From Minisyncoccota bacterium (GTDB lineage: Bacteria > Patescibacteriota > Minisyncoccia > 2-02-FULL-40-12 > GWA2-44-9), in NCBI GenBank assembly GCA_017992005.1, contig JAGOPO010000003.1, positions 1 to 54,289 of the forward strand: a stretch of DNA of 54,289 nucleotides, in the 5' to 3' direction. The stretch's first letter is position 1. Each line of letters begins with the position of its first letter. This document shows positions 610-44,191 of this stretch, in pieces. Made by a program: the position numbers and the translations under genes. The notes below the pieces were generated by a model that had not been told where the DNA came from, searched no databases, and worked only from the letters and a program-made list of their open reading frames with translations.

Positions 610-708
610 GGAGTTGCGATGCGGAAAAGCTAAGGGATTCGGCTTCGCTTCTCGCGTCGCCGTCGCGACTCTCGGGCTAGCCACCACCTCCGGCGGAGTT
701 ATTGTAGT

Positions 709-1381: not shown

Positions 1382-1458
1382 TGGTGGGCCCGCCTGGACT
1401 CGAACCAGGGACATCCAAGGTATAAGCTTGGCGCTCTAACCAGCTGAGCTACGGGCCC
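1382..1458 (-). tRNA. tRNA-Ile (anticodon UAU), CCA encoded
   Basis: Reverse complement GGGCCCGTAGCTCAGCTGGTTAGAGCGCCAAGCTTATACCTTGGATGTCCCTGGTTCGAGTCCAGGCGGGCCCACCA. Anticodon stem is CCAAG/CTTGG and the loop is CTTATAC. Confidence 0.9.
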
Positions 1459-11384: not shown

Positions 11385-12542
11385 ATGAAAGGATTACGTT
11401 TACTTTTACTCTTCATAGCGATTACCGGGTTGGCCCTTGGGCCTACGGTGGTTTCTGCTGCTGATTTTCTTCCCATCGTAAAATGCGGAGCAACAGGGCA
11501 GGCGCCATGTACGCCGTGCGATATTTTTGGATCGCTCAAGAATATTATCGATTTTATTCTCAAGGGGGTTACGGGTCCGGTCGCTGCGTTTATGATTGTC
11601 TATTCTGGCGGCATGATGCTTCTGGGTGGGGGAAAGCCCGAACTCTATAGTGAGGGCAAGAAAATGCTCACGAACACACTTATTGGTGTCACGATCATTC
11701 TGCTCGCGTGGGTGGTGACTAATTTTTTGATTCGCGCACTCATGCCGGGAGTATCGACGGGCACGTCGTGGTTTGAGTTTTCGTGTCCTGCGAGCTTATC
11801 TGCTATCGCACCAATCGACACGACGCTACCAAGTCCAGTCCCCAGTACAGCGGCTGGCGGCTCTACTCCTGCTGCGCCCCCGACCACGAAGCCTTCGTAT
11901 GCGGGTATCTCGTGCCCAATTAGTAACAAGATAAATACATGCAGCACAGACTATGCGTGCCAAGGATGTCCAGAGTATAGAAATGCTGGATATTTCACAA
12001 AATATGGTGCCGACGCGAGAATCCTCGAGGCCATCATGGCAGTGGAGTCCTCCTGCGGAGCGCAACTTAAGAGCCCTGCGGGCGCTTATGGCGTCATGCA
12101 GTTATTGCCAGCCGTGGCGAATAAGCACGTGCAACAATGCCAGATTTACAAGTTAGGAGATGATGGGCAGCCAATGCGAAATACAAAAACAGGAAAATTT
12201 GTGTACGAGACCATTACTCCTGCGTGGTTGCTAAATAAAAATAACTTCGAAAAAAGTGTTTGCTTGGCAGCGATGGAGGTGCGCGCGATCAAGGGTATGT
12301 GCAACAACGATATTCGAAATATTGCCGCTGGATATAATGCCGGACCCGGATGGTGCAAGATTAGCAAGGACTGTGCACAAATGCCGAGCTGTGGGGGTGG
12401 TGTGATGCGCGCCTGGGAGTGTCCATGGGATAACGCAACGCACACTGTATGTAACGAAACCCGCAATGGTGGGGGGCTCATTGAAACGAAGCGATACGCA
12501 CCGAAGGTCGCAACGCTAGCAACCTGCGCAAATCCAAAATGA
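11385..12542 (+). CDS. Fusion of a VirB2/TrbC-like pilin module with a lytic transglycosylase (SLT) domain
   Basis: A signal peptide is followed by two hydrophobic helices around a charged loop, then a Pro/Thr linker. The C-terminal part carries AIMAVESSCG...YGVMQLLP (SLT catalytic Glu-Ser and the GLMQ-type motif). Confidence 0.7.
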   Translation: MKGLRLLLLFIAITGLALGPTVVSAADFLPIVKCGATGQAPCTPCDIFGSLKNIIDFILKGVTGPVAAFMIVYSGGMMLLGGGKPELYSEGKKMLTNTLIGVTIILLAWVVTNFLIRALMPGVSTGTSWFEFSCPASLSAIAPIDTTLPSPVPSTAAGGSTPAAPPTTKPSYAGISCPISNKINTCSTDYACQGCPEYRNAGYFTKYGADARILEAIMAVESSCGAQLKSPAGAYGVMQLLPAVANKHVQQCQIYKLGDDGQPMRNTKTGKFVYETITPAWLLNKNNFEKSVCLAAMEVRAIKGMCNNDIRNIAAGYNAGPGWCKISKDCAQMPSCGGGVMRAWECPWDNATHTVCNETRNGGGLIETKRYAPKVATLATCANPK

Positions 12543-14524: not shown

Positions 14525-14538
14525 GGTTTGTAATCAGT

Positions 14539-14578
14539 CACTCTCTTTCATACATACAGAATATAGAGTGGCCAAGTG
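14539..14578 (-). repeat. Conserved tRNA 3'-flank hairpin element, copy B (core only)
   Basis: CACTCTCTTTCATACATACAGAATATAGAGTGGCCAAGTG abuts the tRNA-Leu discriminator base. Confidence 0.7.
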
Positions 14579-14662
14579 TGCTGGGGAGAGGACTTGAACC
14601 TCCACGGGATTGCTCCCACCAGCTCCTAAGGCTGGCGCGTCTGCCAATTTCGCCACCCCAGC
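14579..14662 (-). tRNA. tRNA-Leu (anticodon UAG), long variable arm
   Basis: Reverse complement GCTGGGGTGGCGAAATTGGCAGACGCGCCAGCCTTAGGAGCTGGTGGGAGCAATCCCGTGGAGGTTCAAGTCCTCTCCCCAGCA. Anticodon loop is CTTAGGA. Confidence 0.9.
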
Positions 14663-27470: not shown

Positions 27471-27659
27471 TTAGGCACGGGGCTTCTCCTCGTAGAGAAG
27501 CATGCCGATTCCGATCCACATCGCAAGCCCAATTGCGGCGACAAACAATTCGGCTGCATCAGCAGGGCGAGCTCCGCGTTGCAGGAATGTCAGGTACTCC
27601 TCCACTGAGCCGACGAGTGGAAATAGGAGCATCCAGAGAACGAAACTCAAATTGCGCAC
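27471..27659 (-). CDS. Small two-TM membrane protein (GTG start)
   Basis: A GGAGG RBS lies 6 nt before the GTG. Sequence is RNLSFVLWMLLFPLV...IGLAMWIGIGMLL. Confidence 0.5.
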   Translation of the reverse strand: MRNLSFVLWMLLFPLVGSVEEYLTFLQRGARPADAAELFVAAIGLAMWIGIGMLLYEEKPRA

Positions 27660-27695
27660 GGGCAACCTCCCGAAATGAAAAAGTGAACTATTTGT

Positions 27696-27723
27696 ATATT
27701 ACATGATTATTGGGGATTGTCAA
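27696..27723 (-). promoter_or_regulatory. Cassette promoter TTGACA-N16-TAATAT
   Basis: Read on the minus strand, upstream of 27659. Confidence 0.55.
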
Positions 27724-27764
27724 TATGCGTATGAATGGGAGTCGGCTTCGCCTTTTGGATACAC

Positions 27765-27786
27765 AAAAACCCCTTGCGGGGTTTTT
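27765..27786. terminator. Bidirectional hairpin
   Basis: AAAAACCCC-TTGC-GGGGTTTTT. Confidence 0.75.
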
Positions 27787-27798
27787 GTTGGCGGTGAC

Positions 27799-27874
27799 CC
27801 TGCGCGCCTATGCGCTTGAGGGCACTTGGCCAGCCACTCTCTTTCATACATACAGAATAAGGAGTGGCCAAGTG
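27799..27874 (-). repeat. Conserved tRNA 3'-flank hairpin element, copy C (76 nt)
   Basis: Near-identical to 709-784. It abuts the distal tmRNA 3'-end fragment, not the complete gene. Confidence 0.7.
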
Positions 27875-27890
27875 TGGAGATGTGGGGAAT
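27873..27890 (-). repeat. Distal direct copy of the tmRNA 3' end (T-loop to acceptor, 18 nt)
   Basis: TGTGGAGATGTGGGGAAT is identical to 28085-28102. Confidence 0.9.
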
Positions 27891-28084
27891 TTCGTCCTCG
27901 AGCTACTGTCGTCACAGTAGCTCTCGTAGTCCTGGGTAGCGGTACACTATTCACTGGATAGTGTACCGGCGCTTCTTCAATCTGTGATTGAGCTCCATCA
28001 CAGATTGGTTCGCTGCTACCCGTTCGATTCCCTGCACATGCTCGCAGAAAACAAAACAGACCCCTATGGGTCCATTTTGTTTTC
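27891..28084 (-). other. 194-bp hairpin-rich insertion between the two tmRNA 3'-end copies
   Basis: Perfect stems at 27900-27923 (10 bp), 27941-27967 (10 bp) and 27978-28007 (11 bp), plus a long hairpin at 28045-28086. An inverted T-loop/acceptor-like fragment, GTTCGATTCCCTGCACATGCTCGCA, lies at 28022-28046. Confidence 0.6.
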
Positions 28085-28086
28085 TG

Positions 28087-28436
28087 TGGAGATGTGGGGA
28101 ATCGAACCCCAGTCCACTACGATGACCGACACGACGTACTACCAATGTATCCGATTCGGTTGTTCGCCTGCGCGTAGGGAACCGGCAAGATAAGCGCAGA
28201 CTATCATGATCTTAGGTTCGGAGAGTCACGACATGAAGGTGACTAACCAGAGCGAGCTAGATGACACCGCAGAATCCCGTAGCAAGCGTCAGGGTGCGAT
28301 GCGCGACGCCCTTAGGCGAACGCGTAATTGGCGGTTGAATAGCCAGTTATATGTTTGACCAGTGTTTAGTGCGGTTACTGGCCGACCGCATATGGCATCG
28401 TGTGGGCATGAAGCAGTGTCGAAACCGATCATCCCC
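28087..28436 (-). ncRNA. ssrA: tmRNA (SsrA), about 350 nt
   Basis: The 5' end is GGGGATGATCGGTTTCGAC and the 3' end is GGGGTTCGATTCCCCACATCTCCA, with a G3:U70 Ala-type acceptor. The candidate tag reading frame GGC UAU UCA ACC GCC AAU UAC GCG UUC GCC UAA (GYSTANYAFA) lies at 28312-28344. CCA is not encoded. Confidence 0.85.
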
Positions 28437-28445
28437 ATAGAACGT

Positions 28446-28474
28446 ATTATACTACAAAAATTGACAAATTGCAA
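28446..28474 (-). promoter_or_regulatory. ssrA promoter TTGCAA-N17-TATAAT
   Basis: The -10 box ends 9 nt before the GGGG 5' end. Confidence 0.7.
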
Positions 28475-28488
28475 CAGTGCTATAAAAT
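28461..28488 (+). promoter_or_regulatory. Divergent promoter TTGACA-N16-TAAAAT for the Cys-rich operon
   Basis: Interleaved with the ssrA promoter on the opposite strand. Confidence 0.6.
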
Positions 28489-28518
28489 CAGATTCGTTCG
28501 AAATTAGGAGGCATGAAT

Positions 28519-43857: not shown

Positions 43858-43908
43858 GGTTATTCGTTTACGAAAAATCCCCCATATTGGGGGACCTTTC
43901 GTATGTAG

Positions 43909-44191
43909 TTGCGGGGGTGGGATTCGAACCCACGACCTTCAGGTTCTTTCTGTTGTCTGCCATTCCTGGCAGTGTCGGACTATCCCATCATCCGTCCCGT
44001 GTGGGCGAGGATGCTCCCATTATAGTCTCTGAACCTTCCATATGATCTATGCAATCATATGGCTTGGCTGCGGATTGCCCTCGGTTGAACCGGTGGGGTT
44101 TCCCGACAGTTTCGGGTGTTTTCGATACGTATCTCTACGTAAAGTCACAATTGCTTATGAGCCTGACGAGCTGCCGCTGCTCCACCCCGCG
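43909..44191 (-). tRNA. Initiator tRNA-Met (CAU) interrupted by a group I intron; exons 44191-44157 and 43945-43909
   Basis: The joined exons read CGCGGGGTGGAGCAGCGGCAGCTCGTCAGGCTCAT|AACCTGAAGGTCGTGGGTTCGAATCCCACCCCCGCAA. The product has the C1xA72 mismatch and is close to E. coli tRNA-fMet as I recall it. Confidence 0.85.
43946..44156 (-). ncRNA. Group I intron (211 nt, no ORF) in the anticodon loop
   Basis: The 5' exon ends in U and the intron ends in G. P7 pairs GACUAU with AUAGUC inside UCAGAGACUAUAAUGGG...GGGAUAGUCC. P9 is CUGCC-AGGAAU-GGCAG. The IGS-like GUGA lies near the 5' end. Several GAAA-closed hairpins are present. Confidence 0.7.

Follow-up and report, generated by a model that had tools for sequence, protein, structure and literature searches.

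We analysed a stretch of 54,289 nucleotides from a Minisyncoccota bacterium (contig JAGOPO010000003.1, hereafter the window), in which the transfer-messenger RNA (tmRNA) gene ssrA is followed by a second copy of its own 3′ end. The 212-bp unit made up of one copy and the sequence between the copies is probably a non-autonomous insertion cassette, flanked by attachment (att) sites, at a layered ssrA hotspot, and one member of a modular family in Patescibacteria. The window encodes FtsH, GyrA, LeuRS, ArgRS, HtrA and SmpB and represents the chromosome of an organism of the Patescibacteria, or candidate phyla radiation (CPR). Throughout, L labels denote loci of relatives, which were gathered via SmpB and via the tmRNA 3′ end, and X labels denote public sequencing runs; L198 is a 13,976-nt Logan contig of run X4.

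The ssrA gene lies on the minus strand at 28087-28436, with the discriminator base at 28087 and no encoded CCA. ARAGORN calls the tmRNA at 28086-28436 with the tag GYSTANYAFA, and the Rfam model RF00023 matches it at 93.8 bits, in full and as one standard piece. The 18-mer TGTGGAGATGTGGGGAAT (plus strand) occurs at 27873-27890 and at 28085-28102, identical at 18 of 18 positions and 212 nt apart from start to start, exactly where an earlier note on this stretch, made from the sequence alone, had placed two copies of the last 18 nt of ssrA. The repeat comprises the last 16 nt of the gene and two flanking bases, and thereby the T-loop, the 3′ half of the T stem, the 3′ acceptor strand, the discriminator and CA. 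No third match is present in the window even with up to three mismatches; shuffled sequences contained a mean of 0.05 matches, and two or more matches were found in none of 100 shuffles.

The unit, as defined here, consists of 27891-28084 and one copy of the repeat. Between the two copies lie 194 nt, which, read in the direction of the tmRNA, hold a terminator-like hairpin, an inverted copy of the gene end, a three-way junction with two hairpins and a third hairpin, so that the order of features from the working 3′ end of ssrA to the displaced one is as follows:

28085-28102, minus strand: proximal copy of the direct repeat (DR2), the working tmRNA 3′ end; from the repeat search and from the end of an RNA contig of X25 at 28087
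28045-28084, minus strand: intrinsic terminator-like hairpin, which starts one base past the repeat and is followed by a U-rich run
28022-28046, minus strand: inverted copy of the tmRNA 3′ end (IR), with a perfect T-loop/T-stem part, GGGAATCGAAC, and a degenerate acceptor part
27934-28021, minus strand: Y-type body with two hairpins (27978-28007 and 27941-27967) on a three-way junction whose closing stem is GGGTAGC/GCTACCC
27891-27933, minus strand: third hairpin (27900-27923) and linker to the distal repeat; the stem is replaced yet paired in L189 and L118
27873-27890, minus strand: distal copy of the direct repeat (DR1), the displaced former ssrA 3′ end; locus L151 joins the tmRNA end directly to the element that follows, termed H

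The structural elements that the earlier note had described in the insert were all located: three perfect hairpins of 10-11 bp (27900-27909/27914-27923, 27941-27950/27958-27967 and 27978-27988/27997-28007), the terminator-like hairpin and the inverted, degenerate T-loop/acceptor piece, which matches the tmRNA end at 11 of 11 positions in its T-loop part and at 8 of 12 in its acceptor part. The hairpin at 28045-28084 has the sequence features of an intrinsic terminator, namely a G+C core, a U-run behind it and a position directly after ssrA, and its orthologues in L189, L193 and L198 have compensated stems. Compared with shuffled sequences, the predicted fold of the region has a z-score of -11.4. 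No open reading frame (ORF) is present inside the 194-nt interval; without a gene, the cassette would be non-autonomous and any enzyme would have to act in trans.

Presence and absence of the unit in close relatives coincide with its repeat boundaries. A metagenome scan with the tmRNA 3′ end retrieved L151, whose tmRNA is 94.6% identical to that of the window and whose tmRNA 3′ end is fused straight to H, so that the two loci differ by exactly the repeat-bounded 212-bp unit. The absence of the unit from L151 indicates that DR1 marks the former 3′ end and that the proximal copy came with the insert. It supports the proposal, made from the window alone, that the distal copy is ancestral and that about 212 bp carrying a replacement 3′ end was inserted; with its tmRNA directly on H, L151 is also the kind of empty site for which a comparison of related genomes had been suggested. 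Of the 106 metagenome matches to the tmRNA 3′ end, the majority belonged to permuted tmRNAs without relation to this gene or to clusters of tRNAs and were set aside.

The arrangement found in the window was assembled independently in at least six public metagenomes. A 12.3-kb Logan contig in X1 is identical to the window, and unitigs or contigs in X2, X3, X4, X7, X8 and X9 extend over part or all of the segment that begins with the distal copy and ends with the proximal one, insert included. In X3, a 42-nt unitig runs from 28073-28102 into TTCGTCCTCGAG, which equals 27891-27902, the first 12 nt of the insert; its depth is 3 compared to 5.5-7.4 around it, and the unitigs break at 27873-27902 and 28073-28102. 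The break pattern in X9 is the same, with one contig extending 12 letters beyond 28102. This junction of unit end, repeat and unit start in X3, and probably in X9, would correspond to either a second tandem copy or a circle, and because no empty-site junction accompanies it in these runs, a tandem copy is the simpler reading.

We further compared the region with RNA sequences. In four metatranscriptomes, only the tmRNA is covered on this stretch, by contigs within 28087-28425, and the insert and H are uncovered; tmRNA depth in these data sets is low (8-21), so that a rare longer RNA could escape. One RNA contig from X25 corresponds to 28087-28372 and ends exactly at the discriminator base of DR2, which identifies this copy as the working tmRNA 3′ end. 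Since the RNA contigs stop here, they are evidence against an intervening sequence cut from the RNA, an option that had been kept in view when the duplication was noticed. The data do not fit a permuted or split tmRNA either: the one-piece model matches end to end, the permuted-tmRNA model reaches 21.6 bits on the region compared to a threshold of 47 bits, and the RNA contig stops at the proximal end. Rfam searches of 27560-28500 at permissive thresholds returned nothing beyond the tmRNA and chance-level matches.

Downstream of the distal copy, the locus carries further modules:

27797-27872, minus strand: H element, a conserved hairpin module that directly follows the distal copy; from sequence comparison
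27763-27788, minus strand: older terminator hairpin ACAAAAACCCC/GGGGTTTTTGT, the 3′ flank of a previous generation; orthologous in L210 and L198, with compensated pairs
27729-27752, minus strand: tail of a B-type body, GGCGAAGC, with an older repeat copy (DR0); orthologous to L003, L103, L193 and L210

H is 95% identical over 80 nt to the 3′ flank of tRNA-Val (709-787) and, in a shortened form, 95% identical over 42 nt to the sequence behind tRNA-Leu (14539-14580). The earlier description of a conserved hairpin that follows the distal copy as well as tRNA-Val and tRNA-Leu therefore holds, but this hairpin is not the native flank of ssrA. In L210, the orthologous copy of the old 3′ end leads straight into …ACCGCC, and then come a terminator, a B-type tail and CGATTCCCATTCA, with no H in between, whereas in the window H sits between the distal copy and the same CACCGCC-terminator sequence; H was thus itself inserted. 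The oldest repeat, DR0, is CGACTCCCATTCATAC at 27729-27744, a decayed copy of the T-loop and 3′ end whose orthologue in L189 still reads ATTCCCCCACATCCCTACA. The locus thus holds at least three generations of 3′ ends, DR0 being the oldest, followed by DR1 and DR2, with a fourth layer in the X4 strain.

H consists of a conserved long hairpin (CACTTGGCCACTC…GAGTGGCTGGCCAAGTG) and a GCGCATAGGCGCGC hairpin, and at the window sites (709-784, 14535-14578 and 27797-27872) and in L151 it always starts right behind the discriminator and CA of a tRNA-type 3′ end. Loose ends in the Logan runs indicate several further H copies in the genome. At tRNA-Val(tac), window 620-708, H is followed by the tail of a B-type body (…GAGAAGCGAAGC) and by GCTAAGGGATTCG (629-641), a copy, at 12 of 13 positions, of the T-loop and acceptor of this tRNA itself, so that tRNA-Val, too, has a decayed cassette.

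The fourth layer is found in the sister strain L198, where a repeat of 10 nt, CATCTCCACA, encloses 4,558 nt that separate 28094 from 28085. Behind this 4.56-kb island, the 212-bp unit, DR1 and H are all intact: the incoming element has accreted onto the older material at a shared att site. The island junction recurs in L203, where it adjoins a 509-aa ORF with the N-terminal motif of serine recombinases that ends inside the tmRNA gene. Large serine recombinase genes converge on ssrA in three loci (L116:1262-2872, L049:8305-9921 and L203:6233-7762); Pfam confirms those of L116 and L049, whereas in L203 the N-terminal motif alone was recognized. As the reading frames extend into the final bases of the tmRNA gene, the att core lies within the coding end of the recombinase. 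The L049 island further encodes a C5 DNA methylase and a HATPase protein, and the 4.56-kb island (L198:1-2119) encodes a small Cys-rich protein (…YCYFHNP…KEKRLSRKKGG) that by eye resembles an ORF of the L069 island. The latter is a classical tyrosine-integrase island of the phylum, with a repeat of 23 nt that begins in the T-loop. Neither IR nor hairpins are visible in the att flanks of the islands in L069, L049, L116, L198 and L203, as judged by eye and without formal alignment; in so small a sample, their absence is no proof. The serine recombinase islands were considered as parents of the cassette and rejected, as their cores of 8-10 nt lie at the extreme 3′ end and the islands sit upstream of pre-existing cassettes. 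A scan of viral contigs for both island ends and for the junction of IR and Y body, and a metagenome scan for the island/tmRNA junction, each returned zero matches.

Among relatives, the modules behind ssrA turn over rapidly. The following combinations were found:

Window, L198 and L189: terminator type 1, IR and Y body
L193: terminator type 1, IR and B body
L003 and L103: terminator type 2, IR and B body
L195 and L210: IR and C body
L118: another terminator, IR and Y body
L147, L206 and L208: terminator only, or nothing
L151: H only

Other bodies, or none at all, are found in relatives whose tmRNAs are 85-99% identical. L003 shares 99.4% of its tmRNA and 97% of its SmpB with the window, yet differs in terminator, IR and body; L189 and L193 are alike in terminator, IR, decayed repeat and downstream gene, and their bodies differ. 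An IR that always fits the T-arm of its own locus occurs in L003, L103, L118, L189, L193, L195, where it includes a T-stem change, and L210. The displaced repeat of L210, TCCCGCCATCTCCAC, is unlike the resident gene but the same as the tmRNA end of other lineages, e.g. L040, which points to import or replacement by recombination.

The fold of the bodies is conserved where their sequence is not. In the Y bodies of the window, L189 and L118, the junction motifs GGGAATCGAACGGGTAGCAGCGAAC, GAGCGCC and GCTACCC are identical; relative to the window, 4 of 11 and 1 of 10 stem pairs are compensated in L189, the stems of L118 are wholly different, and all are still paired. RNAalifold on these three sequences finds 24 of 54 pairs changed on both sides, and in B bodies 12 of 27 pairs are compensated. 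The tmRNAs of the lineages with Y bodies are only 57-90% identical. A covariance model of the Y body, run on the window and 93 loci (1.34 Mb), recovered only its four source sequences (window, L198, L189 and L118), all at ssrA, so there is no evidence for the Y type at other genes in this set. Predicted G:U pairs amount to 4 of 313 in cassette stems compared to 54 of 427 in tmRNA folds. Stems of nearly pure Watson-Crick pairs, a terminator that precedes the body and missing RNA coverage together favour a constraint on DNA hairpins over a stable RNA; any role of the IR and hairpins would most likely be exerted as DNA. Among the body hairpins, some may be small palindromes of a generic kind: the 20-nt perfect, REP-like palindrome CCTGCCTGCCGGCAGGCAGG (after repetitive extragenic palindromic elements, REP) is dispersed in distant Patescibacteria (three sites in L022, and L024, L042, L050 and L195), with some copies inside cassette bodies and others outside. 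As it is also found away from tRNA genes, it was dropped as a hallmark of the cassettes.

Comparable units recur behind tRNA-type genes of the phylum. Among species-representative loci of Patescibacteria, 6 of 49 tRNA genes and 3 of 54 tmRNA genes are followed within 600 nt by another copy of their last 12 nt (at most one mismatch), compared to a chance expectation that we estimate at ~0.001 per gene (600 positions, 37 accepted 12-mers of 4^12). Where inspected, the gene end is usually followed by a terminator or other hairpin, then by the acceptor and T-loop in inverted copy, by additional hairpins and finally by a direct repeat; the cassettes measure 130-230 bp, and their repeats of 17-26 nt start in the T-loop. 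Tandem units occur in L018, L076 and L032 and are perfect in the first two. The inverted copy is interrupted by a small hairpin (AG…CGT), exactly at the border of acceptor part and T-arm part, in the 3′ flanks of tmRNA or tRNA-Ile in L021, L049, L022, L064 and L024; this hairpin shows a compensated change from T:A to C:G between L021 and L049. B-type bodies are found at ssrA in L003, L103 and L193 and at tRNA-Val(gac) in L151. The downstream repeats of L037 and L041 were discarded, being the T-arm of an adjacent tRNA-Leu rather than cassettes.

We propose that the cassette would enter by recombination within the T-loop segment of ssrA and would bring a replacement for the segment from the T-loop to the 3′ end together with its own intrinsic terminator, leaving the tmRNA intact and made, and that the previous 3′ end (27873-27890) and its old flank would thereby be pushed downstream. 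We infer entry at the T-loop from the repeats of 17-26 nt that begin there, which are what T-loop-crossing integrases leave (L069; Dehalococcoides, PMC3146451). Mobility could derive from (i) a recombinase acting in trans on the T-loop repeats or (ii) homologous or repeat-mediated recombination, including allelic replacement after DNA uptake. In the homologous route, the tmRNA gene would provide one arm and the repeat or the downstream gene the other, which would be enough for spread from strain to strain and for body swaps, and recombination between repeats would give tandem copies and losses.

For the IR, three candidate roles or origins may be named: a folded single-strand mimic of the target, a product of templated correction in the long palindrome that it forms with the gene end, and a recombination junction, the last suggested by module boundaries that lie at T-loop sequence in either orientation. 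A role resembling a primer-binding site was dropped, as the IR is complementary to the genomic flank (…CCACA/AAA) and not to the CCA end. A stronger claim would be that the cassettes form a distinct non-autonomous class devoted to the T-loops of CPR tRNA-type genes, with a functional IR (as a folded strand that rebuilds the target duplex, or as a guide-like match) and with Watson-Crick hairpins as the DNA form read by a host or phage recombinase; we regard this as unlikely.

Several observations weigh against an inserted, mobilizable cassette. L151 could have lost the unit via recombination between the repeats instead of representing the original empty site, and in the X runs examined, populations with the unit showed no allele of the empty site. 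The junction in X3 and X9 may therefore be only a tandem duplication and no product of excision. No recombinase domain is present among the 20 window ORFs scanned, and the integrase-bearing islands of the phylum are poor sources: L116, L049, L203 and L198 use a short core at the extreme 3′ end, and the island of L069 lacks the inverted copy and the hairpins. An IR that always fits the local gene is not accounted for by ordinary integrase att sites. Finally, the spread of the Y type could reflect vertical descent with losses and not transposition.

Alternatively, the unit could be a passive scar, the remainder of a larger integrase island or prophage in ssrA that was whittled by deletion down to its att ends, in which case the hairpins would be leftovers with no role. 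The genomes of CPR organisms are small and deletion-prone. ssrA is a proven integration site in the clade, as documented by the serine recombinase islands of L116, L049 and L203 and by the L198 island, the tyrosine-integrase island of L069 has a T-loop repeat, and cis-mobilizable elements (CIMEs) arise by such decay (PMC5704250). We nevertheless consider a scar improbable: the body fold is kept by compensated changes across lineages whose tmRNAs have diverged as far as given above, the module order recurs at many genes and lineages, L018 and L076 contain perfect tandem units, to which the X3/X9 junction points likewise, the att flanks of the islands show, by eye, neither IR nor hairpins, and the unit contains no coding remnants. 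Of the two readings first offered for the duplication, the scar of integrase-mediated events or a miniature element, the latter fits better in view of fold, copy number and recurrence, and the involvement of an integrase is inferred, with no ORF in the unit and no recombinase among the 20 window ORFs scanned.

An origin by local replication error would dispense with mobility altogether. A template switch at the palindromic terminator would create the IR, re-priming at the palindromic TCGA core of the T-loop the direct copy, and slippage the tandems. This fits the geometry of 3′ end, palindrome, inverted copy and direct copy with boundaries in the T-loop, and it fits an IR that always equals the local gene, including the T-stem change in L195, as well as the variable copy number; templated mutation at quasi-palindromes is an established process. 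It leaves unexplained, however, why unrelated structured bodies lie between inverted and direct copies, why homologous B bodies occur at ssrA and at tRNA-Val(gac), why bodies differ between the same flanks in L189 and L193, and why the L210 repeat deviates from its resident tmRNA and equals the 3′ end of another lineage, so that we give this origin little chance.

We assign a similarly small chance to a functional RNA, either a longer tmRNA precursor or a small RNA, in which a helix of the IR and the distal repeat would mimic or compete with the acceptor/T arm and, for example, guide 3′ processing. The terminator with its U-run precedes the IR, no Rfam family matches, the stems are nearly free of G:U pairs, unlike the tmRNA, and the element is absent or replaced in close relatives; the four metatranscriptomes contain no RNA contig on the insert, which counts weakly at a tmRNA depth of 8-21. 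Set against this are the strong predicted structure, the covariation of the bodies and the ability of the IR to pair with either repeat copy, and co-transcription of H is likely in L151, where the element separates the tmRNA from a tRNA. A repeat-induced misjoin during assembly, for which the presence of a repeat speaks and nothing more, is practically negligible and the suspicion of an artefact refuted, as the assemblers use words longer than the 18-nt repeat and the order was reassembled in X1, X2, X3, X4, X7, X8 and X9.

In comparison to known systems, the cassette shares features with several classes of elements. Williams reportedly drew in 2003 a general picture of 'traffic at the tmRNA gene'. 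The closest counterparts are the tandem ssrA islands of Dehalococcoides, which insert centrally within the T-loop with a 20-bp repeat (McMurdie et al. 2011, PMC3146451). Common to both are direct repeats of ~20 bp of the ssrA 3′ end, the insertion point in the T-loop, stacked generations behind an intact ssrA and the existence of units that lack integration genes. Unlike the 212-bp, non-coding cassette, these islands are kilobases long and gene-bearing, with a serine recombinase module beside attL, and it is the cassette that has an inverted target copy and a fold kept by compensatory change. CIMEs are integrase-less, att-flanked elements, either decayed integrative and conjugative elements or decayed integrative and mobilizable elements (PMC5704250). 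The cassette resembles them in its att-like repeats at both ends, corresponding to attL and attR, in the absence of integration or transfer genes and in accretion with incoming elements at a tRNA-type gene, here in L198. CIMEs are, however, of kilobase size and have no conserved secondary structure, whereas the architecture of the cassette is conserved and not decaying. From the hallmarks of integrative elements in general, we find direct repeats of the gene 3′ end, a replacement 3′ end and an empty site in the relative L151, but no internal integrase next to attL.

Folded single-strand recombination sites are known from the CTX phage, whose attP(+) hairpin is used by XerCD, and from integron attC. 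They share with the cassette two inverted target-like copies with a short spacer, the possibility of a folded mimic of the duplex target and frequent tandem arrays; the target of the cassette is the T-loop and not dif or attI, and the resemblance is confined to the geometry of the inverted arms. Small palindromic elements include REP and bacterial interspersed mosaic elements, Rickettsia palindromic elements and MITEs (miniature inverted-repeat transposable elements). Like these, the cassette is short, non-coding, hairpin-forming, intergenic and strain-variable, with the above-mentioned palindrome in some cassette bodies; unlike these, it has ends that copy the 3′ end of the neighbouring gene and no fixed terminal repeats. 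A classification as MITE is at odds with its gene-specific T-loop ends, its 18-nt duplication and the absence of dispersed Y copies in the 1.34 Mb.

The cassettes are set apart from tandem ssrA islands and CIMEs by their size, the lack of any gene, the inverted target copy, the compensated fold and their spread over many tRNA-type genes of the phylum. We found no account of such cassettes in the literature searched, an absence that is not proof of novelty. CPR organisms have tiny genomes that are thought to be poor in mobile DNA, and here one essential RNA gene records at least three to four layered insertions; tiny structured cassettes are found at roughly one in ten of the tRNA-type genes sampled. 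If truly mobile, they would represent a new type of hitch-hiker whose survival depends on mending the interrupted gene and providing its terminator. They provide a strain-level marker for uncultured lineages and mark a natural landing pad at ssrA and tRNA genes, and they may lead to a new recombinase specificity. Annotation is affected too: the calling of tRNA and tmRNA genes, like island finders, can be misled by inverted copies and by 3′ ends that occur twice.

Further features of the window were recorded:

28446-28474, minus strand: promoter-like site of ssrA (TTGCAA, 17-nt spacer, TATAAT), found by a consensus scan; its end lies 10 nt upstream of the tmRNA 5′ end

A tRNA-Ile with the anticodon UAU is encoded at window 1382-1458 (minus strand), and a tRNA-Ile(UAU) gene is also found near ssrA in the Patescibacteria loci L018, L022, L024, L032, L064, L075 and L076. 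The window ORF at 11385-12542 (plus strand) combines a type IV secretion pilin domain (PF18895) and an SLT transglycosylase domain in one frame. In tRNA-Met(CAT), window 43908-44191 (minus strand), the anticodon loop is split by a group I intron of 211 nt, which Rfam model RF00028 matches with 60.7 bits at 43956-44168, and ARAGORN finds this tRNA only when introns are allowed.

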